From assembly GCA_036274735.1 (NCBI GenBank), contig DASUFD010000053.1, forward strand, positions 19,587-83,586: a stretch of DNA of 64,000 nt, written 5' to 3'. The stretch comes from Burkholderiales bacterium (GTDB lineage Bacteria; Pseudomonadota; Gammaproteobacteria; Burkholderiales; SG8-39). Every line of letters begins with the position of its first letter. Position 1 is the first letter of the stretch. Shown piece after piece: positions 3,511-61,813 of the stretch. The notes under the pieces were generated by a model. It saw only the letters and a list, made by a program, of their open reading frames with translations, had not been told where the DNA came from and made no database searches. The translations under genes were made by a program, and so were the position numbers.

Positions 3511-7313
<3,803 letters not shown>

Positions 7314-48110: not shown

Positions 48111-48803
48111 ATGTGCGGTCGTTACGCGCTCCACGCCCATTCCGAGGTCGTCGCGCTTCAGTTCCGCCTTGCGGCGGCGCCGGCTTTCGCGCCTCGCTAC
48201 AACATCTGTCCGGGTAGCGAGGTGCTCGCGGTGCGCGCCGACGAGCGCGGCCGCCGTAGCGTCGGCGAATTCCGCTGGGGCCTCATTCCGCATTGGGCGA
48301 AGGATGCGGCGATCGGACAGAAGCTCGCGAATGCGCGCGGCGAGAGCCTGGGCGAGAAGCCTGCATTTCGCGATGCTTTCCGGCGCTCACGCTGCCTCGT
48401 ACCCGCCAGCGGATATTTCGAGTGGCGCAGCGTGGCCGGGAGCAAACACCCCTGGTACTTGCGTCCCGCCGACGAACGGCTGTTCGCCCTCGGCGGCCTC
48501 ACCTCGCTCTGGCACGGACCCCAGGGGACGGTACGCAGCGTATCGCTCATCACCACGCCACCCAATCGCCTTACCGGGCCGATCCACGACCGTATGCCGC
48601 TCATCCTCGCCCCGCGCGACTACGACGCCTGGCTCGATCCGGGCAACGACGATGTCGAGGCCCTGAAAGCGTTGGTGCGCGCGTATCCGGCAGAAGAGAT
48701 GCGCGCGTACGCGGTGAGCCCGCGGGTTAATGCACCCGCCAACGACGATGCCGCGCTGATTGAGCCGCTTCCCGAGGGGCCGGCGCAGCGCGATTTGCTG
48801 TAG
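48111..48803 (+). CDS. SOS response-associated peptidase (SRAP/YedK-like abasic-site processing protein)
   Basis: ORF 230 aa. Invariant N-terminal 'MCGRY', then 'RYNICPGS', '[12 protein letters not shown]', 'NARGES', '[12 protein letters not shown]', 'HDRMPLIL'. Confidence 0.9.
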
Positions 48804-48813
48804 CGCCACCATA

Positions 48814-48829
48814 CTGTATATAATGCCAG
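48814..48829 (+). promoter_or_regulatory. LexA operator (SOS box) overlapping -10 hexamer of lexA
   Basis: CTGT-ATATAATG-CCAG, a CTGT-N8-ACAG consensus with one mismatch. An embedded TATAAT (48819-48824) lies 9 nt upstream of the lexA ATG. Confidence 0.8.
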
Positions 48830-48833
48830 TCCA

Positions 48834-49466
48834 ATGGATGCCGCGAACGCGCTCACCGCAAGGCAAGCCGAAATTCTGCGCTTGGTGCGCGAGCTGACCG
48901 AGGTGTCGGGCTACCCGCCGACCCGCGCCGAGATCGCCGAGCGCATGGGATTCCGCTCGGTGAACGCCGCCGAGCAACACCTGCGCGCGCTGGAACGAAA
49001 GGGCGCGATCGAGATCTCATCGGGCGCCTCGCGCGGCATCCGCGTGCGCGATGCCCGCGCGCCGACGCGGCGTCTGCTCGAGCTTCCCGTCGTCGGCCGC
49101 GTGGCCGCCGGCGCGCCGATCCTCGCCGAGGAGAACGTCCAGGGCCACTATCAGGTCGACCCGAACCTGTTCACGCCGCGCGCCGACTATCTGCTGCGCG
49201 TGCGCGGCATGTCGATGCGCGACGCCGGGATCCTGGAAGGCGACTTGCTGGCGGTGCACCGCACGCCGGAGGCGCGCAGTGGACAAGTTGTCGTCGCGCG
49301 CCTTGCCGACGAAGTCACCGTGAAGCGCCTGCGCCGTCGCGGCCACGTCGTGCAGCTCGAGCCGGAAAATCCCGAGTTCGCCCCGATCGAGATCGACCTG
49401 CGGCGCGAAGCGCTGGCCATCGAAGGCGTGGCCGTCGGTGTAATACGCAACGGCAAGGGCCTTTGA
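48834..49466 (+). CDS. lexA: LexA repressor
   Basis: ORF 210 aa. Winged HTH '[46 protein letters not shown]'. Cleavage site 'VAAGAP'. Ser/Lys dyad 'GMSMRDAGI' and 'VTVKRL'. Confidence 0.95.
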
Positions 49467-51716: not shown

Positions 51717-52982
51717 TCAGTGCAGCTTCACGGTGTCGTCAGCCACCGCGTCCGCGTCCTGCTCGAACTTGCGCGTCAGGAAACCGATGACCTCGTCGGC
51801 ATTGCGAAAGCGGGCTTCCCGGTCCTTCTCCAGCAGCTTGTCCATCAGACGCTGATACTGCTGTAGCGGCTCGGGCAGGGGCGGCGGCGTCTTGTTCAGA
51901 TGCTGCAGCGCCACCTCGACCGCGGAGTCGCCTTCGAACAGATGGCGCCCGGTGAACATCTGGTAGAGAAGCACTCCGGCGCTATAAATGTCGGTGCGCA
52001 GGTCGAGCGCCCGGCCCTGCACCTGCTCCGGGCTCATGTAACGCGGCGTGCCGAGCACCTCGCCGGCGCTCGTGCGGTCCACCGCGTCAACGTGCTTCGC
52101 GATGCCGAAATCGACAATTGCCAGGCTACCGTCGTCGCGGAACATGATGTTCTGCGGCTTGAGATCGCGATGCAGGATGCCTCGTTCGTGGATATCGCCG
52201 AGCGCGAACATGAGCTCGCGGAAAAGCCGCAGCGCCTCGGCCGCCGCCTGGGGCTTGCCGGCAAGGCGCTTGTTCAGATCGCCGCCTTCGAAGAACTCCA
52301 TCACCAGATAGGCGTAGCCCTCCACGTCGCCATGCCCGTAAATACGCGCCACGTGTCGGCTCTGAATGCGCTCGACGAGCGAGTATTCCTCCATGAAGCG
52401 CGCGAGCGCGTTCTTGTCGGACACGATCTCGCGTCGCAGGATCTTGACCACGAGCGGCGCGTCATCGCCTTCCTTGGACGCGAGATAGACCCTCGCCGTT
52501 CCCCCCTCGCCGATCAAATGCAGCACGTTGATGCCCGGGATCCGGATTTTCGCGCCGAGGTTGTGGCCCTCCAGCCGCGCTGCGAGCTCGGGCGACACCG
52601 TCCTTTCCACGGCGTCGGCCGTCAGCTCGTGGATCGAGGTGATGAGCTTCTCGCGCGTCATCTCCTGCTTGCGCTGATAGTCGTCGGCCCCCGCCTTCAT
52701 CGCGCGCACCGCGATGATTTCATTGCCGGCCCCGGTGAGGAACAGGACCTTCGGGCAGTCGGCCCGGGTCTTCAGCCGCTGCAGCCAGTCGAGGCCGTCG
52801 CCGCGGCCGAGCATATAGTCGAGGATGACCACATCGTAGGAACGGAGGGGAAAACCGGCGCCCGGAAAATCGCGCTCCAGCGGATCGTAACCATCCACTC
52901 CGGCGTCCGGCCAGCGCTGCTTGATATATCGCCCGAGGAGCTCGCGCAGGTCCGGGTCGTCGTCGATGATGAGCACGCGCAT
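51717..52982 (-). CDS. response-regulator receiver fused to Hanks-type Ser/Thr protein kinase
   Basis: ORF 421 aa. REC motifs: 'VLIIDDDPD', 'VVILDYMLG', 'LFLTGAG', 'DDYQRK'. Kinase motifs: 'IGEGGTARVY', 'VVKIL', 'HRDLKPQNIM', 'DFGIAK', 'GTPRYMSPE'. Confidence 0.85.
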   Translation of the reverse strand: MRVLIIDDDPDLRELLGRYIKQRWPDAGVDGYDPLERDFPGAGFPLRSYDVVILDYMLGRGDGLDWLQRLKTRADCPKVLFLTGAGNEIIAVRAMKAGADDYQRKQEMTREKLITSIHELTADAVERTVSPELAARLEGHNLGAKIRIPGINVLHLIGEGGTARVYLASKEGDDAPLVVKILRREIVSDKNALARFMEEYSLVERIQSRHVARIYGHGDVEGYAYLVMEFFEGGDLNKRLAGKPQAAAEALRLFRELMFALGDIHERGILHRDLKPQNIMFRDDGSLAIVDFGIAKHVDAVDRTSAGEVLGTPRYMSPEQVQGRALDLRTDIYSAGVLLYQMFTGRHLFEGDSAVEVALQHLNKTPPPLPEPLQQYQRLMDKLLEKDREARFRNADEVIGFLTRKFEQDADAVADDTVKLH

Positions 52983-52992
52983 GGCGCGCTAG

Positions 52993-53298
52993 TCACTCAT
53001 ACGCGATCTGCACGCGGGCGAGGTACTCGGCATATTCGGCGATCCGCGCCTCGAGCGATGCCCGGTCCCCGCTGCGCGCGCCGTCCTCGATGTATTTGCC
53101 GAGGATCGAGACTTGGGTGAAACCGTAGGAGTGGCCGACGCCTTTCATGCGATGTCCGAGCTGCCGCAACTGCTCGAAATCCGCTGCAGCGAGCGCCACG
53201 CGCAGGGTTTCGACCTCCTTGTTGCGGTTCTTGAGGAACACCGGGATGAGATCCTCGATGTCCCGCGCGACCGTGACCTTATAGTCGTTCTCGTCCAT
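52993..53298 (-). CDS. histidine phosphotransfer (Hpt) domain protein
   Basis: ORF 101 aa. 'DFEQLRQLGHRMKGVGHSYGF' matches the Hpt HxxKG phospho-His helix. Stop lies 10 nt upstream of the REC-kinase ATG. Confidence 0.7.
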   Translation of the reverse strand: MDENDYKVTVARDIEDLIPVFLKNRNKEVETLRVALAAADFEQLRQLGHRMKGVGHSYGFTQVSILGKYIEDGARSGDRASLEARIAEYAEYLARVQIAYE

Positions 53299-53349
53299 AT
53301 TCGCCGCATTATAGGCAGGGCAGTATCACAGCGGCGTTTCGACCGCCGG

Positions 53350-53868
53350 TCAGGGTTTGTCAGCCAGCACGTCGCGCGCCCGAGCGAGATGCGGATGCAG
53401 CGAAAGCGCCGCGGCGAAGGTGTAGCGCGCATCGGCGGATGCGCCTTCGCCGAGCAGTATTTCCGCGAAGTGCAACATCGCGGCGAAATGCCGCGGCTCG
53501 AGCGCGAGCGTACGCGCGATGTCGTGCAGGCATTCAGCGTCGCGACCGAGCAGGTAGTACAACGTGGCGCGCTTGTGCCATGCCTCGGGGAAGTCCGGCG
53601 TGCTGCGCAGCAGCCGGGTGAGACGCGTCTCGGCGATGTCGTAGCGCTGCGCGGCGATGTCGCGCGTCGCCGCGTCGAGCGCGGCGGCAGCGCCGGCGTG
53701 CGGGTGGTGCATCCAGGCGCTCCAGATGCGCTCTTCGGTCTCCTCCGCCTCCCCGGTCGGACAGCAGGCGAGACGACGGAAGAGTTGCGCAAGTCCCGGG
53801 AGATCCCGCGCGGGGCGACGCGCGCGGCGCTCGGCGATGAGGTTGAGGATTCCGCTCTCGGCCGTCAT
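53350..53868 (-). CDS. tetratricopeptide-repeat protein
   Basis: ORF 172 aa with high GC3. 'PDFPEAWHKRATLYYLLGRDAECLHDIARTLALEPRHFAAMLHFAEILL' are TPR-like helices. ATG lies 12 nt after the dnaE2 stop. Confidence 0.7.
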   Translation of the reverse strand: MTAESGILNLIAERRARRPARDLPGLAQLFRRLACCPTGEAEETEERIWSAWMHHPHAGAAAALDAATRDIAAQRYDIAETRLTRLLRSTPDFPEAWHKRATLYYLLGRDAECLHDIARTLALEPRHFAAMLHFAEILLGEGASADARYTFAAALSLHPHLARARDVLADKP

Positions 53869-53880
53869 CGAAGAGTGATG

Positions 53881-56862
53881 TTAATGGAAATCCCGGGAAG
53901 CCGCTGCGAGCGGCCCGAGCCAGGCGCTGTGGTCGACCAGGCGGCGCGCGACGAGATGCACGACGTCGGCGTCGCGCTCCACGATGCCGTGCACGCCGAG
54001 CAGCCGTGCACCGAGCAGCTCGTCCCGCTGGCGCTCGGCGAGCCGCGCCCAGACGACGATGTTGGCGCACCCGGTTTCGTCCTCGAGCGTGACGAAAATC
54101 ACGCCGCTTGCCGTATCGGGACGCTGCCGGCAGGTCACGAGGCCGGCGACGCTCGCCCGCGCGCCGTGCGGCAGCCGTCGCAGCTCCTCCGCGGTGAGTA
54201 GACCGCGCTTGCCGAAACGCTCTCGCAGCAAGGCGAGCGGATGGCGACCGAGCGTCAGGCCGAGGCTCGTGTAGTCGTCGGCGACGTCGTCACGTTCGCG
54301 CGGCGCGGCGAGCGAAGGTTGCGGCTCCGAGCCGAACGTCTCGAGCGGGGCCTGAACGGCGGCGCCGGCCGCGCTCCAGTGGGCGAGGCGCCGGTTCCCG
54401 GCCAGCGAGCCGAGCGCGGCGGCAGCCAGCGCTCGCAGGTCCTTGCGATTGAGCTGCGCACGTCGGGCGAGAGCCTCGACGTCTTCGTAGGGGCGGCGCG
54501 CGGCGATGCGCCTACCCGACGCCTCGGCGAGCCCGCGCACCATGCGCAAGCCGAGTCGAAGCGCCTTCTCCTCGAGCGTGCAGTCCCAGTCGCTCGCATT
54601 CACGTCCGGCGGGCGTACCTCCACGCCATGCCGGCGCGCGTCCTGCACGAGCTGCGCCGGGGCGTAGAAGCCCATGGGCTGGCTGTTGAGCAGGGCAGCG
54701 CAGAACGCCGCCGGATGGTGGCACTTGAGCCACGAAGAGACATACACGAGTAGCGCGAAGCTCGCCGAGTGGGACTCGGGAAAGCCGTACTCGCCGAAGC
54801 CGAGGATCTGCCGGTAGATGCCGTCGGCGAACTCGGCGCTGTAGCCGTTCACGCGCATGCCGCGCTTCAGCTTCTCCTCGAAGTGCTCGAGGCCGCCGCG
54901 CTTCTTCCATGCCGCCATCGACCGGCGCAGGGCATCGGCCTCGCCGGCCGAGAAGCCGGCCGCCACCATGGCGAGCTGCATGACCTGCTCCTGGAAGATC
55001 GGCACGCCGAGCGTGCGCTCGAGCACCTGCCGGACCGCGTCGCTCGGATACTCGACCGGCTCGGCCTCGCGTCGTCGGCGCAGATAGGGATGAACCATGC
55101 CACCCTGGATCGGACCCGGGCGCACGATCGCCACCTCGATGACCAGATCGTAATAGCTCGCGGGGCGCAGGCGCGGCAGCATGCTCATCTGCGCACGCGA
55201 TTCGATCTGGAAAACGCCCATGGTATCGGCTTTCTGGATCATGGCGTAAACCGCCGGATCCTCGGCCGGCACCTCGTGCATCTGCATTCCCAGCATCTGC
55301 AACGCTTTGCGAATTGCCGTGAGCATGCCGAGTGCCAGGACGTCCACCTTGAGGAGTCCGAGCGCCTCGAGATCGTCCTTGTCCCACTGGATCACCGTGC
55401 GCTCCGGCATCGCCGCGTTCTCGATCGGCACGAGCTCGCAGAGCGGCCCGCGCGAGATAACGAACCCGCCGGTATGCTGGGAGAGGTGGCGCGGAAAGCC
55501 GCGCAGCAGCTGCGCCAGCTCAAACCACGTCGCGGTTTCGGGCAGAGGGCCGTCCCAGAATGCGAAGCCCTTCGCCGTGCGCTCCACCTCATCGGGCGGC
55601 ACGCCGAGCGCCTTGCCCACGTCGCGCAACGCGCTCTTCGGCCGGTAGCAGATTACCGTCGCGGCAAGCGCCGCGCGACTACGGCCGTACTTGCCGTAGA
55701 TGTACTGGATCACTTCCTCCCGCCGCTCGTGCTCGAAATCGACATCGATATCCGGCGGCTCGTTGCGCTCGCGCGAAAGGAAGCGCTCGAAAAGCACGCT
55801 CATGCGCGCCGGATCCACCTCGGTAATGCCGAGGGCGTAGCAGACGACGGAGTTCGCCGCCGACCCCCTCCCCTGGCAGAGGATTCTCCGGCTGCGCGCA
55901 TAAGCGACTACGTCGTGCACAGTGAGAAAGAAGGGCTCGTAGCCGAGCTCGGCGATGAGCGCGAGCTCATGCTCGGCGGTCTCCCGCACCTTGTCCGGCA
56001 CTGCATTGGAAAAGCGCCGCGCGAGGCCCTCGGCGACCAGCCGGCGCAGCCAGGTGGCCGGCGTTTCGCCCGACGGCACGATCTCCTGCGGATACTCGTA
56101 GCGCAGCTCGTCGAGAGAGAACCGACAGCGCTCGGCGACGGCCAGCGTTTCGGCGAGCAGCTCCGCAGGATAGAGCTGAGCGAGACGCACGCGCAGCCGC
56201 AGGCTCCTCTCGGCGTTGGGAAAAAGCGCCTGGCCGCATTCGGCGACCGGACGCTTCAGGCGGATGGCAGTGAGGACATCCTGCACGCGGCGCCGCGAGC
56301 GCACGTGCATGTGCACATCGCCGGCGGCGACGAGCGGCAAGCCGTATTCTCGGCCCAGCGCCCGCAGCCGGGCGAGACGCATGCGGTCGTTTGGCCCGCA
56401 ATGCAGCTCGGCGGCGATCCAGGAGCGGCCGGCGAAATGCTCGGCGACCCAGCCGGCGGCGGGAAAGTCTTCGCCCGGGACCCAGAGCAGTAGGGCGCCG
56501 CTCCCCGACACTGCCGCGATATCCTCGCGTCGAGCGGCATATCGCCCTTTCCGGCTGCGCCGGCGCGCCTCGCTGATCATGGCGCTCAGAGCGCCATACG
56601 AGCGCCGGTCCGTGGCGAGGAGCACGAGCTTGAGGCCGTCTTCCAGCGTGACTTCGCTGCCGAGAATCAGCGGCAGGCCGAGCTCCTTCGCGGCCAGATG
56701 CGCGCGTACGGCGCCGGCGAACGAGCATTCGTCGGTCAGTGCGAGCGCTCGGTAGCCGAGCGCGCGGGCACGCGCCACGAGCTCTTCTGGATGGGAGGCA
56801 CCGCGCAGGAAGCTGAAGTTGGACAGGCAGTGCAGCTCGGCGTAATCAGGCAAACCAGCCAT
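53881..56862 (-). CDS. dnaE2: error-prone DNA polymerase DnaE2 (ImuC)
   Basis: ORF 993 aa. PHP N-terminus '[23 protein letters not shown]'. Pol III alpha core '[18 protein letters not shown]' and '[14 protein letters not shown]'. Follows imuA-imuB. Confidence 0.9.
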
Positions 56863-58018
56863 GTAGGTACCAATCGTCTTCTTCTCGATAGATCCACCCG
56901 AGCGCGCCCTGGAGGCGTGCGACGAAGTAGTCGCGGCGCGCCTCGTCTCCGTCCCACCAGCCGCACTCGATGCGCTCGGGCCCGGCTACCAGCTCGAAGC
57001 GGCCCGGCTCGAGACGGCGCGGCGGCTGGACGAGCCATGCCGGACGCGATCCCGGGGAGCGGAACTCGCGTGCATCCCAATCCCCGGGATCGATACGTCG
57101 CCACGCGTGCTCGGGGCGATGGTCCGGAATCGTCGTCACGCCATAGACGGCGTCTCGGCCAAGGCGCGCCTGGAGCCGCTCGAGGAGCTGCGCCCAGTCC
57201 TCGCTCTCGCCTGCGGCGTCGCCGAATAGCCCCCGGCTGCCTCCGGGAGCCGCCGCGAAGTCGGCGGCCTGAAGGCGAATCGCGTGGACCGGCTCGCGCA
57301 GATCGAGCATCGCCAGCCGCTCGCGAAGCAGGCGCACGAAACGCGCCGTTTCCCGTGATGGCGAGGCGAGATTCACGGGAACCGTTGTACCCGAGCCCCG
57401 GGCATCGATCAGACGCAGCGTGAACGTGCGTATTCCGGCATGGCGGGCGGCGAGCAGGCCTTCGAGCTGCAGAAGCAGCCGGCGTGCGGCGAAGAGGAGC
57501 GCCTCGGTTTGTATCACTTCCGCGGAGAGCTCGAGCTGCACGTCGAAGCGATCGGGAAGCGCGAAAAACTCGCGCGCCTCTTCTCGCAGGCCGCGCGCGC
57601 CGTCGAGCTCGTCCAGCACGCGCTTCGGGCAACGTCGGGCGAGGCCGGCGCGGGGCAGCTGCGCCAGATCGCCGAGCGTCGCGATGCCGATCGTGCGGAA
57701 GAAATCCAGTTCCCAACGGGTGACTTCCAGCGGCAGCGCGTCGAGGACAGCGCCGCTGCCGCGGGCGAGCCACAGCGCTGCGCGCGGCGTACCTGCCGTG
57801 GCGAGCGAAGCCTCGAGCCCGAGATCGGCGAGCCCGGCTCGCAGGGCTTCCAGCAGCGCCGGGAGGCCGCCGAAGTAGCGCAGGCTGCCGCCGACTTCGG
57901 CAAGCAGCGCATCGGGGCGCTCGAGAGAAACCCTAGGCGTGAACTGGCAAGCCCAGGCAGCGATCGCTTCGATCGTGGCGGGCGCGAGCTGGCGGAAGTG
58001 CAGGCCGACCCAGAGCAT
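56846..58018 (-). CDS. imuB: ImuB (Y-family polymerase-like, non-catalytic) protein, short form
   Basis: 390 aa from ATG 58018 ('[11 protein letters not shown]...'). '[20 protein letters not shown]' is an HhH-like segment. Position between imuA and dnaE2, with a 17-nt overlap with dnaE2. The upstream part of ORF 56846..58426 is non-protein-like. Confidence 0.75.
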
Positions 58019-58634
58019 GACGAGGTGAAGAAAGCGCGAGCCGCAGCACGGCGCCGGCGGAAGCGCCGCGGCGCTTGAGCAGCCGCACGACGAGCTCCGC
58101 CTCGCCGGGGTGTACCTCGAGCCGAAGCGCCGCCGGCGAACACTGACGCGCCGTTGCTGTCGGACGATAAAGGAAAGCGAGCGCGCGGCCCGCCTCGGCG
58201 GCAAGCGCAAGTCGCTGCAGCTCGATATAGCGCAGGCGTGGCAGCCAGGCGACCAGAGCGGCAATGACTCCGCTGCGCAGCACCTGCTCCGCGGCCCAAA
58301 GCGCATCCCGGGGCCGCTGCGGTTGCAGCACAACGAGCTGTGCGAGATCAACACCACCGGCAGCGAGCGCCGGCGCATAGGGAACGTGCGGCGGGGCGAG
58401 CCAAACGATGCGCTTGCCCGACGCACTGAGGGCGGCCAGGGCCCGTAGCACGAGCTCGAGCTCGCCGATGCCTTGGGCCTCGCCGAAGATCTCGGTCAGA
58501 TCGCCGGTCGGCCAGCCTTGGCCTGGAAGCGCGGCGTCGAGGTCCGGGAAGCCGGTGGCGATTCCCGGTAGCCAGTGCGCGATGCGCGATGCGCGCCACA
58601 CCGGCTGGGATTGCAGGATCTCTTCCACCGTCAT
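57933..58634 (-). CDS. imuA: ImuA (RecA/SulA-like SOS mutagenesis protein)
   Basis: ORF 233 aa. 'IATGFPDLDAALPGQGWPTGDLTEI', 'GIGELELVLRAL', 'RIVWLAPPH', 'LLKRRG'. First gene after a canonical SOS box. Confidence 0.75.
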   Translation of the reverse strand: MTVEEILQSQPVWRASRIAHWLPGIATGFPDLDAALPGQGWPTGDLTEIFGEAQGIGELELVLRALAALSASGKRIVWLAPPHVPYAPALAAGGVDLAQLVVLQPQRPRDALWAAEQVLRSGVIAALVAWLPRLRYIELQRLALAAEAGRALAFLYRPTATARQCSPAALRLEVHPGEAELVVRLLKRRGASAGAVLRLALSSPRHALGRPALPPARARHDRSDRCLGLPVHA

Positions 58635-58635
58635 G

Positions 58636-58651
58636 CTGTTATTATATACAG
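58636..58651 (-). promoter_or_regulatory. LexA operator (canonical SOS box) overlapping -10 hexamer of imuA
   Basis: CTGT-TATTATAT-ACAG, a perfect CTGT-N8-ACAG. On the minus strand TATAAT (58641-58646) is followed by 6 nt and then the imuA ATG. Confidence 0.85.
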
Positions 58652-58689
58652 TATCGGCGGACAGCGCTGTCGAGCTGCAGGTCGCGCGC

Positions 58690-59577
58690 TTACTCGCAGA
58701 AGAATTCGATCAGCTCGTTCGCCCTGGCGCGCGGCTGGCCGAACGCTATCCAGCCATGGCCTCGCAAAGTGAACTCCTCACGCCGCAGCACGATCTCCTT
58801 GTCGCCATCGATAGTAACGAACGTGCCGTTTGCGCTGTGATCCGTCAGGACGAACTTGTCCAGCCGGCGTTCGATCTTGCCATGCGCACGCGAGGCCATC
58901 CGTTCCCGGATGACAAGATCGGCAGACGGGTCGCGGCCCAGGGCAACGAACGGGCGTTGCGCCGAAAGCACGTACTCGTTGCCCTGCACGACGAGCCGAA
59001 GCTTGGAGTCCTTCGGCTTGTACGCCGACCTGTCCGATGCGAGGGTCGTCATGTCCTCGCTCTCCTGCCAAACCAGTTCGTAGACCGGGATTTCCTGCAC
59101 CCTGCCCTTCACCTCCATCGTCGTGATGGCGCGCGTCGCTGCCCTCAGCATCGGCGACATGAGCATCACGGTATCGCGCGCGGTGATGATCTGTCCCTTC
59201 GTCGCCACGCGCGCAAGGCGCGCCGCCACGTTGACGGCGTCGCCGAAGAGGTCGCCGTCGCGCTCGACGACGGGACCGAGGTTGAAGCCGATGCGGATGC
59301 CGATGCGCGTGTTGCCCACGGGCGTTAGCTCGGCAATCGCCCGTTGCATTTCGATCGCTGCAGCGGCCGCCGCATCCGCCGTCGCGAAGGTTGCCATGAC
59401 TTCGTCGCCGAGGGTCTTGACGACGCGGCCGTTCGCCGCGAGCGTCTTTTCGCGCATCAGGTTTACGCACTTTTCTATCGCGGCGTGCGCGACGGCGTCT
59501 CCGACGAGTTCGTAGAGCTTGGTGCTGCCGCTGACATCGGCAAAAAGAACCGCGGCTTCGCTCAAGTCCTCAGCCAT
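58690..59577 (-). CDS. class III adenylate cyclase with C-terminal FHA domain
   Basis: Cyclase motifs 'VLFADVSGST', 'KTLGDEVMATF', 'GDLFGDAVNVAARL' (Lys/Asp specificity pair suggests ATP). FHA motifs 'ALGRDPSADLVI', 'SRAHGKI', 'SANGTFV'. Start ATG 59577 preferred; ATG 59607 or TTG 59622 possible. Confidence 0.8.
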   Translation of the reverse strand: MAEDLSEAAVLFADVSGSTKLYELVGDAVAHAAIEKCVNLMREKTLAANGRVVKTLGDEVMATFATADAAAAAAIEMQRAIAELTPVGNTRIGIRIGFNLGPVVERDGDLFGDAVNVAARLARVATKGQIITARDTVMLMSPMLRAATRAITTMEVKGRVQEIPVYELVWQESEDMTTLASDRSAYKPKDSKLRLVVQGNEYVLSAQRPFVALGRDPSADLVIRERMASRAHGKIERRLDKFVLTDHSANGTFVTIDGDKEIVLRREEFTLRGHGWIAFGQPRARANELIEFFCE

Positions 59578-59620
59578 GTAGACCCGCCCGCTATGGCGCG
59601 CGGCCATTGTACGCAGCAGC

Positions 59621-59650
59621 AAAAAAAAGCGGGGCGCCGAAGCGCCCCGC
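59621..59650 (-). terminator. rho-independent terminator downstream of the ligD-ku-HTH/TPR-nuclease unit
   Basis: Minus strand reads GCGGGGCGC-TTCG-GCGCCCCGC (9-bp stem) followed by T8. Confidence 0.75.
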
Positions 59651-59675
59651 GCCCCTCCCCTCCTCTTCGGTTCTG

Positions 59676-59698
59676 TTGCAGCGCTCGCTTGCAGCGCT
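59676..59698. repeat. direct repeat TTGCAGCGCT x2 (3-nt spacer)
   Basis: Copies at 59676-59685 and 59689-59698. Each contains the palindrome AGCGCT. Confidence 0.7.
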
Positions 59699-59749
59699 TT
59701 TTACTGCGGCTCGAATGTTGGAGCCCGCGAACTGACGATATTTGACAAG

Positions 59750-60136
59750 CTAATGCTTCGGCTTCTGCGTACGCGAAGAGCGCACAGTCACGCGATGGCG
59801 ATCACCGATCCATTGTGCTCCGCGCCCGGCACGCGGGCCAATGTCGCTCTGTTCGATGCGCCGTCCGTTGATGTATACCTCGGCGAGGAGCCGGCCGTAG
59901 CGATCGGCTCCGAGAGGACGAAGCGTCACCTCGCCGGAGGAAATGAGCGCGCGAAGCCGCTGCTTGGCCGCCGGCCCGTCCGCTTGATCGAGCTCCGCTG
60001 CATACACGTTCGTCAATCGCACCTTCTGTCGGTTGCACACCAGCGTGTCGCCATCGATGGCAATGCATCGTTCGCCGCAATGGACGGACGAGGCCGTGGC
60101 TGCGAGGGCGAGCGCGAGAAGGACTCGCCGGCTCAC
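59750..60136 (-). CDS. thermonuclease (staphylococcal nuclease-like) family protein, secreted
   Basis: ORF 128 aa. Signal peptide 'MSRRVLLALALAATASS'. SNase-like 'AIDGDTL', 'VRLTNVYAAE', 'DRYGRLLAEVYING'. 4-nt overlap with the upstream gene. Confidence 0.65.
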   Translation of the reverse strand: MSRRVLLALALAATASSVHCGERCIAIDGDTLVCNRQKVRLTNVYAAELDQADGPAAKQRLRALISSGEVTLRPLGADRYGRLLAEVYINGRRIEQSDIGPRAGRGAQWIGDRHRVTVRSSRTQKPKH

Positions 60137-60951
60137 TTGCCCGATTGCAGCAGGCGCCGGTACTGCGCCATGTAGCGAATGGCTTCGCGCGGTTTGCGAA
60201 GCGCTTCGGAGAGGAGCGCCAGGTTGTAGCAGCAGTCGGCGAAACGGGGATTGAGGCGCAACGCCGCTTCGTAGGCGTTGAAGGCTTCCTCCCGTCGCCC
60301 CAAGTCCTCTAGGACCAGGCCCAAGTTATAGAGTAGCCGCGCATCGTCGCCGGAGATGCGTAGCGCGCCGCGATAGGCCTGCTCCGCATCGGTCAGCCGC
60401 CCGAGCTGGTGTAGCAGCCGGCCCAAGTTGATCCCGGCCTCCGGCATTCCGGGCTCGAGGGCGAGCGCGTGCTCGTACGCCGCGAGCGCCGCCTCCGCAT
60501 CCGCGGCCTCGAGCGCCGCGCCCCGGTCGAACCAGTCGGCCGCCGAGGAGAGCTGTTCGCGGCGGCGCGTCTCCATTACGCGGAGAGAACCGTCGGCGGG
60601 ATTGCCGTGGAAGCGCAGCAGGTACTGCCCGGATTCGGCGTGCCATCGTGCCGTGCCCTCGCCCACCACCAGGTGATCGCCTTCGGCGCTGATGTTGAGG
60701 CCGGAGAGCGGCATGGCAGACGGCAGGCGCCGTCGCAGCTCCCTGATGGAGCGCATCACGCGCCGCGGCGAAACGTTGGCAGCGACGAGCGACTGCGCGG
60801 TACGAAGGACGATCAGGTCACGGAAGGAAAAACGCCAAGCGTTGCGCGGCCCGCGCGAGGGAGAGACGAAGCCGGCACGGATGAGCCGCCTGATCGTACC
60901 CGGGGCAAGTCGCAGAAGCTTGGCGGCCTCGCGCAGGCCGTAGTCCACCAC
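60133..60951 (-). CDS. excisionase/MerR-type HTH domain + TPR repeat protein
   Basis: 272 aa from GTG 60951 (1 nt after the ku stop) inside ORF 60133..61161. HTH 'GLREAAKLLRLAPGTIRRLIRAGFV'. C-terminal TPR repeats 'AEQAYRGALRISGDDARLLYNLGLVLEDLGRREEAFNAYEAALRLNP'. Confidence 0.65.
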   Translation of the reverse strand: MVDYGLREAAKLLRLAPGTIRRLIRAGFVSPSRGPRNAWRFSFRDLIVLRTAQSLVAANVSPRRVMRSIRELRRRLPSAMPLSGLNISAEGDHLVVGEGTARWHAESGQYLLRFHGNPADGSLRVMETRRREQLSSAADWFDRGAALEAADAEAALAAYEHALALEPGMPEAGINLGRLLHQLGRLTDAEQAYRGALRISGDDARLLYNLGLVLEDLGRREEAFNAYEAALRLNPRFADCCYNLALLSEALRKPREAIRYMAQYRRLLQSGK

Positions 60952-60952
60952 C

Positions 60953-61813
60953 TTATTTCTTGGCCGCCCTGCGCGCCGTGGTCTTCGCCGCGGCAGCCTC
61001 CGTCCCTTTGGGCGCTTGCGCTCGCTTGGCCGGCTTCTTTTCCAGGCTGGCGCGCAGCGCTTCCATGAGATCGATAACCTCGCCGCCCGCCGAGGGCGCC
61101 TCGGCACCCGTGATCTCCTGGCCTTCGATCTTCTTCTGCACCGCCGCTTCGATTCGCGCACGTACGTCGTCGCTGTACTGGGTGGGGTCGAACTTGTCCG
61201 CCGACTGTTGCTCGATCAGCTGCTGCGCGAGCTTGAGCTCGGCCGGCTTGACGTCCATGTTCGGAATCTCGATGTCGCGCAGCGAGCGCACTTCGCCGGC
61301 GTACAGAAGCTGCTGCATTACCAGACCTTCCACGAGGTCCTCGACGGGACGAATCATCACGATGTACTGCTTGCCGCGCGCCGCCCACCGGCCGATCGCG
61401 CAGCGGCCCGACTCGCGCAACGCTCGCGCGAGGAGCGCATATGGCTTCGCCCCGCCCTTGTCCGGACCGAGGTAGTAGGCCTTGTCGAAGTACACTGGAT
61501 CGACCGCCTTCAGCGGCACGAACTCGGTGATCTCTGCCGCGTGCGTGCCCGTTTCCTCCATGGCCTTCAGCTCTTCCGGAGTGAACATCACGTACTGGTC
61601 CTTGGCGAATTCGTAGCCCTTGACCATGTCTTCGCGCGGCACGACGACTTCTTCCTTGACGCAGACGTACTGCTGCTTCAACCGCGAGCCGCATGCCTTG
61701 TGCAGCAGATTGAAGGAAATGGCGCGGCTCGCCTCGGTTGCCGAATACAGCTTTACCGGGATGGAAACCAGCCCGAAGGACACAGTCAGCGAAGCGATCG
61801 ATCGCGCAGCCAT
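60953..61813 (-). CDS. ku: Ku protein (NHEJ DNA end-binding)
   Basis: ORF 286 aa. 'SLTVSFGLVSIPVKLYSAT', 'VKGYEFAKDQYV', basic Lys/Ala-rich C-terminal tail. GGGAGG SD upstream. Confidence 0.9.
   Translation of the reverse strand: MAARSIASLTVSFGLVSIPVKLYSATEASRAISFNLLHKACGSRLKQQYVCVKEEVVVPREDMVKGYEFAKDQYVMFTPEELKAMEETGTHAAEITEFVPLKAVDPVYFDKAYYLGPDKGGAKPYALLARALRESGRCAIGRWAARGKQYIVMIRPVEDLVEGLVMQQLLYAGEVRSLRDIEIPNMDVKPAELKLAQQLIEQQSADKFDPTQYSDDVRARIEAAVQKKIEGQEITGAEAPSAGGEVIDLMEALRASLEKKPAKRAQAPKGTEAAAAKTTARRAAKK

Follow-up and report, generated by a model that had tools for sequence, protein, structure and literature searches.

A class III adenylate cyclase with a C-terminal FHA domain: a candidate phospho-threonine-gated cAMP generator lacking its usual kinase neighbour in a Burkholderiales genome

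Introduction

The class IIIc cyclases Ma1120, Rv1264, Rv1900c (the cyclase homology domain, CHD, of LipJ) and the Silicibacter protein 3mr7 have the same compact catalytic domain as the protein described here, with sequence matches at E values from 1e-19 to 1e-7, and the mycobacterial-type IIIc enzymes share with it the six catalytic residues and the Lys/Asp (ATP) pair. The regulatory modules of these enzymes are diverse: Rv1264 has a pH-sensing N-terminal domain, Rv1900c an alpha/beta-hydrolase, and the Ma1120 catalytic construct none. Our protein is unlike all three in having an FHA domain at its C-terminus and a conserved linker that bears a Thr. Cya1 of Synechocystis PCC 6803 likewise combines a class III cyclase with an FHA domain, implying phospho-threonine (pThr)-dependent control of cAMP. 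However, the FHA domain of Cya1 is N-terminal and the protein longer, whereas our protein, from the Proteobacteria, has the CHD followed by the FHA domain within 295 amino acids.

A second point of comparison is provided by GarA, OdhI and the linker of Rv1747, FHA switches that read phospho-Thr in their own disordered segment. Here too the FHA domain stands next to a segment, predicted to be disordered, with a highly conserved Thr (T177) after acidic residues, but the effector is a cyclase domain that needs dimerisation. The analogy suggests that cis or trans binding of pThr by the FHA domain might serve as the cyclase switch.

The third is the threonine-phosphorylation pathway (TPP) of type VI secretion (T6SS), PpkA-PppA-Fha1, in which Fha binds pThr-TssL in Agrobacterium (PMC3953482) and in which TagF acts in repression (PMC5995506). 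In the nearest relatives of our locus, the cyclase-FHA gene heads a series encoding a Hanks kinase, a DotU/OmpA (TssL-like) protein, an IcmF-like protein, TagF and Fha (T6SS_FHA_C). These components correspond to those of the TPP, and the logic is shared, in that pThr is placed by a kinase and recognised by an FHA protein, but these loci show no other T6SS core genes within 10 kb and a TpsA/TpsB pair adjoins the module. To our knowledge, no cyclase is a component of the TPP. The TPP genes (kinase, DotU, IcmF-like, TagF and Fha) are absent from the window itself, by which we mean the whole 64-kb stretch of Burkholderiales DNA that was analysed.

Results

The cyclase domain

The cyclase-FHA coding sequence occupies 58690..59577 on the reverse strand (295 residues and a stop codon); its start, the ATG at 59577, agrees with the 295-residue length and the MAE..SE N-terminus found in all close homologues. 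Residues 3-161 (59095..59571, reverse strand) match the class III cyclase homology domain (Pfam PF00211, Guanylate_cyc) with E = 1.5e-15 and 57.7 bits against a cut-off of 21.9. The metal-binding Asp pair is formed by D14 in FADVSGST and D58 in LGDEVMA, 44 residues apart, both of which align with the equivalent Asp of Ma1120 and 3mr7; among the 138 diverse family representatives used for residue conservation, the first is Asp in 128 and the second in 130. The adenine-specifying pair is K54, in the LGDEVMA region, and D109, which lies with the transition-state residues N116 and R120 in the motif DLFGDAVNVAARL. The catalytic spacings (D-D 44, K-D 4, D-N 7, N-R 4) equal those of Rv1625c, whose catalytic residues we take to be D256, K296, D300, D365, N372 and R376. 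The complete hexad DKDDNR is present in 111/138 representatives, the window protein among them. A sequence-only reading of this DNA had described an active-looking class III core on the strength of FADVSGST, LGDEVMA and the Lys/Asp pair, and our analysis bears this out, with all six catalytic residues intact.

A phmmer search of the PDB matched 3mr7 (1.4e-19) and Ma1120 (8e-16), and Rv1264 and Rv1900c also align, which is a class IIIc-like pattern. The AF2 model of the 295-residue protein (pLDDT 91.9) was matched to Ma1120 by Foldseek with a target TM-score of 0.85-0.90, E = 2e-13 and an rmsd of about 2.3 A. The gene is under purifying selection: dN/dS of the window copy against six close relatives (L001-L006; L007 and L008, with values of about 1, were left out on account of an indel that puts the frames out of register) is 0.08-0.15. 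Pairwise dN is 0.08-0.12 from the window copy to its relatives and 0.04-0.07 among the relatives. The residues of the core point to catalytic competence and to specificity for adenine, and we suggest that the product is most likely a soluble class III (IIIc-like) adenylate cyclase of small size, which as a homodimer would make cAMP.

The FHA domain and the linker threonine

The FHA domain spans residues 193-295 (58693..59001, reverse strand; Pfam PF00498, 1.5e-8), the match itself covering residues 213-254 with 35.4 bits against a cut-off of 20.7. In the AF2 model, strands run over residues 193-294 with pLDDT above 90, as a beta-sandwich. The residues of the pThr pocket are all in place (G214-R215, S229-R230-x-H232 and N250-G251), and each is retained in 135-138 of the 138 representatives. 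The Pfam match and this conservation uphold the earlier description of a complete FHA module with a pThr-pocket signature. The protein also gives a weak Pfam match to Yop-YscD_cpl, at 23.9 bits, under the cut-off.

Between the two domains lies a linker (residues 171-192; 59002..59067, reverse strand) with the motif W170-x4-[DE]175-x-T177-x-[MILV]179, of which residues 174-187 have pLDDT below 50 in the AF2 model and are predicted to be disordered. T177, encoded by ACG at 59047-59049, is present in 127/138 representatives (92%), whereas adjacent linker positions are 12-38% conserved. We regard T177 as a candidate phospho-acceptor and ligand of the FHA domain; its conservation could alternatively reflect a structural or dimer-interface role.

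Neighbours of the family

The cyclase-FHA family falls into at least 1,110 clusters when grouped at 50% identity. In a survey of 84 loci, 54 have a Hanks Ser/Thr kinase within 6 kb of the cyclase, and the same holds for 27 of the 43 distant relatives with full flanks, making this kinase the one strongly conserved neighbour of the family. Kinase density falls from 11.2 per 100 kb at 0-2 kb to 0 at 6-10 kb (396 kb surveyed), and in 10 loci a PP2C phosphatase is placed between cyclase and kinase. A REC domain is absent from all 54 of these neighbouring kinases. In about 37% of the fully flanked distant relatives no kinase lies nearby, which is also compatible with a function independent of a kinase; orphan copies of this kind are frequent and sound, all motifs being retained in 14 of the 16 loci that lack a kinase nearby. 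Two-partner-secretion (TPS) loci adjoin family members in two distant clades. A cAMP receptor was sought in the window by tblastn with an approximate E. coli CRP query and none was found; the 84 loci gave one weak case. Our literature search found no characterised cyclase-FHA protein and no link between a cyclase or kinase and imuABC.

The nearest relatives and the rearrangement

In the nearest clade (at least 56% identity), the region as a whole belongs to the conserved backbone of the chromosome. The order in the nearest relatives is TpsA, cyclase-FHA, (Sel1), Ser/Thr kinase (STK), (DotU-IcmF-TagF), Fha, SOS box, imuA-imuB-dnaE2, TPR, Hpt and a REC-Ser/Thr kinase fusion (REC-STK), and in the closest of them the kinase that adjoins the cyclase is a dedicated Hanks kinase of 850-945 residues; in L004 the adjacent Hanks kinase lies at 3760-6321. 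A kinase-to-Fha block of 3.5-9 kb stands between cyclase and imuABC in this clade. Proximity of imuA, imuB and dnaE2 to the cyclase is confined to L001-L004 and L008 (at least 70% identity) and occurs in none of 74 more distant loci.

The window has neither the kinase-(DotU-IcmF-TagF)-Fha block nor the upstream two-partner-secretion genes. No Hanks kinase adjoins the cyclase, REC-STK being the sole kinase in the 64 kb, and tblastn of the window with DotU, IcmF-like, TagF and Fha of L001 and with a PP2C gave no matches. Homology to the sequence that precedes imuA in the relatives begins only about 10 nt ahead of the SOS box; in an alignment made to look for a deletion scar, the intergenic sequences past the cyclase stop, those of the window and of the relatives, fail to align with one another. 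The cyclase stop probably abuts the imuA promoter because a rearrangement removed the kinase-to-Fha block, and the adjacency of cyclase and imuA looks like a by-product of this event. Its direction, loss here as opposed to gain in the relatives, we infer from the state shared by most of about 10 related loci rather than from a phylogeny. The window cyclase probably has its cognate kinase at another place in the genome.

The hairpin and candidate promoter element ahead of the cyclase

Upstream of the cyclase lies a 9-bp all-GC hairpin, GCGGGGCGC-TTCG-GCGCCCCGC, followed by eight T residues (59621..59650, reverse strand; placed at 59650-59629 by the terminator scan). It is an intrinsic-terminator-like element that goes with the 5' side of the cyclase gene. 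Across nine loci its core, GGGGCGC..GCG.CCC, does not vary, nor does the T-run, and its sequence is single-copy within the window. The gene on its far side is SNase in the window but a giant TpsA protein in the relatives. The hairpin had been taken for the terminator of the NHEJ operon; it does stand upstream of the cyclase, but it keeps that place in relatives whose upstream gene is quite different. An Rfam scan of 58500-59900 returned a chance-level match only, and no known RNA element. We also considered the hairpin as a class-II-activator site (its centre lies about -40 from the -10-like box described below) and dropped this as unsupported, the terminator reading being simpler.

Nine nucleotides past the T-run, and about 29 nt ahead of the cyclase ATG, is the -10-like hexamer TACAAT (59606..59611, reverse strand), recognised by conservation in the alignment; the relatives have GTAnAAT, and in alignment A3 G149, T150, A151, A153, A154 and T155 are invariant. 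No -35 match was found for it, and a sigma-70 promoter scan of 58300-60300 returned no promoter. The hexamer is a candidate promoter element of the cyclase.

The junction with imuA

The immediate downstream neighbour of the cyclase, on the same strand and after a gap of 55 nt, is imuA (57933..58634, reverse strand; NCBIfam ImuA_translesion, 1e-61), first gene of the LexA-controlled imuA-imuB-dnaE2. Its canonical LexA (SOS) box, CTGTATATAATAACAG, lies at 58636..58651 on the reverse strand, has the form CTGT-N8-ACAG, includes TATAAT and is the sole perfect box in the window. A scan of the window for such boxes reproduced the distance given earlier, the box starting 38 nt past the cyclase stop; it ends 1 nt ahead of the imuA ATG (58634). 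In L001-L004 and L008, where Fha is the upstream gene, a LexA box also stands directly ahead of imuA, whereas the cyclase has no CTGT-N8-ACAG box of its own (59578-59760). Judged by its conserved placement, the box is that of imuA and not of the cyclase.

The odd neighbourhood raised the possibility of a chimeric assembly. This was ruled out by a Logan contig from a second sample (SRR26502134, 1561 bp) that matches 58175-59735 of the window at 99.74% without gaps; because this independent contig carries the same junction, the order hairpin, cyclase, SOS box, imuA is no assembly chimera. No terminator was found in the 55-nt gap, and read-through of cyclase transcription into the imuA promoter is therefore possible, with nothing in its support.

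The REC-kinase

REC-STK (51717..52982, reverse strand; Pfam Response_reg and Pkinase) is the only kinase match in the window and, as had been noted before, starts 5.7 kb downstream of the cyclase on the same strand. The further proposals made for it have fared less well. That it is the partner of the cyclase finds no support in the family, since the kinases beside the cyclases are not REC-fused (0/54) and the closest relatives have a dedicated Hanks kinase. The suggested link to DNA damage fares no better: the linkage to imuABC is confined to the nearest clade and is interrupted there by the kinase-to-Fha block, and the LexA box follows imuA whatever gene lies upstream. The DNA-damage connection of the cyclase appears to be positional. 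An exact-match look-up of identical REC-STK sequences returned short Logan contigs only, and the corresponding look-ups of LigD and Ku gave no record.

Discussion

We think it reasonably probable that the protein is a phospho-Thr-gated cAMP generator that has been orphaned in this genome. A Hanks-type kinase would make the pThr ligand, whether in its own chain, in a partner or at the linker residue T177, and the FHA domain of the cyclase would bind it. Were the binding to occur in trans between two subunits, it would promote the catalytic dimer; were it to occur in cis, it would bring about auto-inhibition. In either case the cAMP output would shift, and PP2C would erase the mark where the genome has one nearby. 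Control of the cyclase by a pThr mark that a kinase sets had been put forward from gene proximity. In its general form this proposal is favoured by the kinases near 54 of the 84 loci and 27 of the 43 distant relatives and by the interposed PP2C genes; the choice of the REC-kinase as partner is what the family argues against. The synthesis of cAMP, the dependence on pThr, the site at T177 and the direction of regulation are all proposals that we draw from these patterns.

One challenge comes from the window itself. Both clade neighbours are missing here (TpsA upstream, the kinase block downstream), and dN from the window copy to its relatives is somewhat above that among the relatives (0.08-0.12 against 0.04-0.07), as would be expected were the gene left behind from a TPS/kinase/T6SS-accessory island that has been lost, intact yet idle or decaying. 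We consider this unlikely: the frame is intact, the catalytic and FHA residues are all kept, dN/dS is low, the upstream hairpin and the -10-like hexamer are still in place, the same arrangement occurs in the second sample, intact-motif orphans are common elsewhere (14/16), and the raised dN may merely reflect a longer branch. It is also conceivable that the FHA domain works independently of phosphorylation, for example in constitutive dimerisation or as a scaffold, with a cyclase that is constitutive or set by bicarbonate, pH or metabolites. Some FHA domains, such as the YscD/MxiG-type domains of type III secretion systems (T3SS), are known to interact independently of phosphorylation, and the sub-cut-off Yop-YscD_cpl match and the 37% of distant relatives that have no nearby kinase point this way. 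Such domains, however, typically lack the phosphate-contacting residues, whereas R215, S229, R230 and N250 are kept here in 135-138 of 138 representatives, and the enrichment of kinase and PP2C around family members is strong; we find the proposal rather improbable.

We are similarly doubtful that REC-STK makes the pThr read by the cyclase FHA domain and so yields a damage-linked cAMP output. Its kinase domain is intact, it is the sole kinase in the window, and once the adjacent kinase was lost it became the nearest candidate. The genes from imuA to REC-STK are co-directional with gaps of 10-51 nt, so REC-STK, perhaps co-transcribed with the SOS-controlled imuA-imuB-dnaE2-TPR-Hpt, could be damage-induced. 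A REC-cyclase lies between Hpt and REC-STK in two loci (L086 and L087), which makes a cyclic-nucleotide output of that relay plausible in this lineage. However, no kinase beside a family member is a REC fusion. In the nearest relatives REC-STK is present further down the same contig alongside the dedicated adjacent Hanks kinase, and because the two coexist it is no replacement for it. Moreover, the cyclase-imuABC linkage is limited to one shallow, globally syntenic clade, and the SOS box is that of imuA, with none upstream of the cyclase. A more elaborate version, in which the orphaned cyclase-FHA was captured by the Hpt-phosphorelay REC-STK, so that damage and/or input from a PAS histidine kinase would lead through pThr177-FHA dimerisation to a pulse of cAMP, seems to us very unlikely. 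Were it true, the capture would amount to a direct relay from SOS and two-component signalling through a Ser/Thr kinase to cAMP.

Taken alone, the window locus is of little weight, being a further class III cyclase whose regulatory domain is of a familiar type. It belongs, however, to a very large, uncharacterised family of cyclase-FHA proteins of about 295 residues that are tied genomically to Hanks kinases and sometimes to PP2C. The family may offer a simple model for turning Ser/Thr phosphorylation into a cAMP signal in Proteobacteria, with T177, R215 and S229 as the residues to which it points.

Domain architecture and family

The open reading frame at 58690–59577 (−) encodes a protein of 295 amino acids; a longer TTG-initiated form reaching 59622 is unlikely because the close homologues are all exactly 295 residues long and share the N-terminus MAE(Q/E)(L/V)SE. 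Pfam assigns residues 3–161 to the class III cyclase domain (57.7 bits against a cut-off of 21.9) and residues 213–254 to the FHA domain (35.4 bits against 20.7). The nearest solved structures are compact class IIIc-like cyclases (Silicibacter 3mr7, M. avium Ma1120, and M. tuberculosis Rv1264 and Rv1900c). The AlphaFold2 model, made from an input alignment of 25 sequences, has a mean pLDDT of 91.9, and its N-terminal half matches Ma1120 with a target TM-score of 0.85–0.90 and an rmsd of about 2.3 Å. The sequence-only reading had judged that the cyclase core looks active and that the FHA module is complete, and both judgements stand. All six catalytic positions are canonical (D14 and D58 metal-binding, K54 and D109 adenine-specifying, N116 and R120 transition-state), with spacings of 44, 4, 7, and 4 residues, which we take to be the same as in Rv1625c; these residues point to a class III cyclase domain that is competent for catalysis and specific for ATP. 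The FHA signature (G214-R215, S229-R230-x-H232, N250-G251) predicts a domain competent to bind phosphothreonine (pThr). Every test at the level of sequence and of structure assigns the protein to both domain classes.

At least 1,110 clusters match the protein at E ≤ 1e-30 (HMMER, 1.84 billion cluster representatives), and most of the best 150 matches are about 295–300 residues long with the same cyclase-then-FHA order. A genome scan finds the family mainly in Burkholderiales and other Betaproteobacteria, including the cultured Cupriavidus and Paraburkholderia phymatum, and in some Gammaproteobacteria. Such fusions are routinely annotated as 'adenylate/guanylate cyclase domain-containing protein', and our literature search found no paper characterising the proteobacterial family. 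Synechocystis has an FHA-cyclase, Cya1. Among 138 full-length representatives (35–55% identity to the query), 111, the window protein included, keep the whole catalytic hexad DKDDNR, and each FHA pocket residue is retained in 135–138. The other 27 (about 20%; P0131, P0148, P0159, P0204, and P0253 in the family alignment are examples) have lost at least one catalytic residue but retain the FHA pocket and, for the most part, T177, a threonine in the inter-domain linker. It is possible that these are pseudo-cyclases serving as pThr-dependent scaffolds.

Genomic neighbourhood

We surveyed 84 loci, four on long metagenome contigs (proteins 81–82% identical) and 80 from genomes, down to 40% identity, using phmmer with the window's and relatives' proteins and all-against-all clustering of neighbouring ORFs. 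The dominant neighbour is a Hanks-type Ser/Thr kinase, which lies within 6 kb of the cyclase in 54 of the 84. The distant relatives (L011 onwards) include 43 loci whose flanks extend 6 kb or more on either side, and 27 of these have such a kinase. As an internal control, we took the density of kinase domains in these distant loci: it is 11.2 per 100 kb within 2 kb of the cyclase, 4.6 at 2–4 kb, 1.4 at 4–6 kb, and zero in the 396 kb lying 6–10 kb away. A PP2C phosphatase adjoins the cyclase in 10 loci, mostly gammaproteobacterial, with the order cyclase–FHA, PP2C, kinase wherever it could be read. The principle of pThr control proposed by the sequence-only reading thus gains real support from the family, and the genomic coupling of cyclase–FHA to Hanks kinases and PP2C is family-wide.

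The module is also associated, though less strongly, with two-partner secretion (TPS): genes for TpsA (TPS and PATR domains) and TpsB (ShlB/POTRA) flank the module in 16 loci from two distant clades, so a functional link to TPS exoproteins is possible. The loci are L001–L010 and, in Gammaproteobacteria, L044, L067, L073, L080, L083, and L084, where a PPIase is added; between the two clades, cyclase identity is only about 40%.

The window locus and its closest relatives

In the nearest relatives one strand reads TpsB, TpsA, hairpin, cyclase–FHA, (Sel1 protein), a Hanks kinase of 850–945 residues, (DotU/OmpA, IcmF-like, TagF), the separate T6SS-type protein Fha with a T6SS_FHA_C domain, SOS box, imuA, imuB, dnaE2, TPR, Hpt, (REC-cyclase, two loci), and REC-kinase. 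Beyond it, the opposite strand carries REC, PAS histidine kinase, LexA, and SRAP; NAPRTase and an MFS transporter are among the genes that come next. From imuA onward the window is identical in order, and this region belongs to the chromosome backbone conserved in one Burkholderiales lineage; being neighbours there is therefore little guide to function. Where the relatives have TpsBA, upstream of the hairpin, the window encodes LigD, Ku, an HTH/TPR protein, and an SNase-like protein, and the block from kinase to Fha is wholly absent; in tblastn, the only match of the relatives' block proteins to the window is the kinase domain of the REC–Ser/Thr kinase fusion (REC-STK, 51717–52982 (−)), at 35% identity.

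The missing block resembles a set of T6SS accessory genes (Hanks kinase with Sel1 repeats, DotU/OmpA, IcmF-like, TagF, Fha) placed between the TpsA giant protein/cyclase–FHA and imuA (L001 6571–14659, L002 6216–13821, L003 2688–10736; also L006, L007, L008, L085, and L088). Its IcmF-like protein has about 640 residues and no C-terminal domain, L004 has only the kinase and Fha, and the 10-kb flanks of these loci hold no further T6SS core genes. In the window, 59750–61161 (−), between Ku and the cyclase, encodes the MerR/HTH_17-TPR protein, whose longest ORF shares about 200 nt with the 3′ end of Ku, and the small nuclease, which has an N-terminal signal-like segment. An HTH/TPR homologue follows Fha in L007 (12896–13240), which marks the stretch between Ku and the cyclase as rearrangement-prone.

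Since this neighbourhood is unlike that of all relatives, we checked for a chimeric assembly. An independent 1561-bp Logan contig from another sequencing run (SRR26502134) matches 58175–59735 at 99.74% with zero gaps. Hairpin, cyclase gene, and SOS box all fall within it, as do the first 153 imuA codons; a chimera is ruled out and these junctions are genuine. Pairwise dN/dS against L001–L006 is 0.08–0.15 (dS 0.74–1.04), all functional residues are intact, and kinase-less copies are common: 16 of the 43 distant relatives have no kinase close by, and hexad, T177, and FHA pocket are all kept in 14 of the 16. We therefore regard the window gene as functional, its kinase probably being encoded at another locus. 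The window holds no PP2C, second FHA domain, or second cyclase domain and, at the level of the locus, no kinase/PP2C/FHA module; a CRP-like protein was also not found there, a weak negative since the only probe was an E. coli CRP sequence.

The layout in the sequence-only reading is accurate (hairpin upstream, SOS box 38 nt past the stop, REC-STK on the same strand after another 5.7 kb), but its choice of the REC-STK as partner gains no support. The partner conserved in the family is a Hanks kinase without a REC domain, which is absent here; not one of the 54 neighbouring kinases is fused to REC. Moreover, the REC-STK coexists with the dedicated kinase in relatives and is therefore not its substitute. 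The presence of a REC-cyclase inside the Hpt/REC-STK string of one relative clade does make a cyclic-nucleotide output of that relay plausible in the lineage; nevertheless, we consider it very unlikely that the orphan cyclase–FHA was captured by the REC-STK.

Flanking elements and the imuA string

The upstream element, a 9-bp all-GC hairpin with T8 (59650–59621 (−)), had been called the NHEJ operon terminator. The hairpin and T-run are real, but the label needs correcting. Hairpin (GGGGCGC-N4-GCGCCCC), T-run, and GTAnAAT are invariant in nine loci (59606–59650 (−) in the window; alignment A3 of the 5′ flanks) amid variable intergenic sequence and whatever the upstream gene, so the element is better seen as belonging to a conserved 5′ flank of the cyclase gene itself. 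Most likely a terminator here shields the gene, and a −10 element with a presumed promoter function comes after it. The stems, being invariant, offer no covariation evidence for a hairpin, and the palindrome could instead be a protein-binding site.

The SOS box, a perfect CTGT-N8-ACAG at 58636–58651 (−), is the sole perfect box in the 64 kb. The same LexA box directly precedes imuA in relatives, where Fha is the gene before it; it therefore belongs to imuA, and its closeness to the cyclase stop results from the missing block. It is only in the closest clade (L001–L004 and L008, at least 70% identity) that imuA–imuB–dnaE2 lie near the cyclase, and this shallow synteny speaks against the suggested SOS link; nothing in the locus assigns the cyclase gene to the SOS regulon.

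The imuA box holds a perfect TATAAT, and the ATG lies 1 nt past the box and 7 nt past the −10 hexamer (58632–58651 (−)), a geometry repeated in L001 (14681–14696), L002 (13836–13851), L003 (10761–10776), and L004 (7532–7547). This suggests a leaderless imuA mRNA, with LexA covering promoter, transcription start site, and start codon together. From imuA (57933–58634 (−)), imuB, dnaE2, TPR (172 residues), Hpt (101 residues), and REC-STK follow co-directionally with gaps of 10–51 nt (51717–58634 (−)), an order conserved in L004 and L085–L088, and the SOS-inducible mutasome operon and the Hpt/REC-kinase relay may share a transcript. The REC-cyclase (Response_reg and Guanylate_cyc, 363 residues) sits between Hpt and REC-kinase in L086 (8907–9998) and L087 (6380–7471); in the window it is absent and the gap is 10 nt. 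REC, PAS histidine kinase, LexA, and SRAP occupy the opposite strand, the SRAP (YedK-like) and lexA genes adjoining at 48111–49466 (+). No perfect box precedes lexA, so any auto-regulatory box of this gene has to be either degenerate or of a different kind.

A candidate phosphorylation site in the linker

The 22-residue linker is variable (12–38% column conservation) and predicted to be disordered (pLDDT < 50 over residues 174–187), yet T177 is retained in 127 of the 138 representatives within the motif W170-x4-[DE]-x-T-x-[MILV]. Self-reading FHA switches (GarA/OdhI, the Rv1747 linker) have a conserved Thr after acidic residues in a disordered segment beside the FHA domain, and T177 resembles them in all these features. 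We suggest that the Hanks kinase would phosphorylate T177, perhaps once the FHA domain has docked on the autophosphorylated kinase, and that pT177 would then be held by the partner subunit's FHA domain, stabilising the active dimer. We prefer binding in trans because class III active sites form across the dimer interface and the protein has no other dimerisation module; a cis, auto-inhibitory version of pT177–FHA binding is equally compatible. What this analysis adds to the family is the statistics of its association with kinases, PP2C, and TPS genes, together with T177 as a candidate site.
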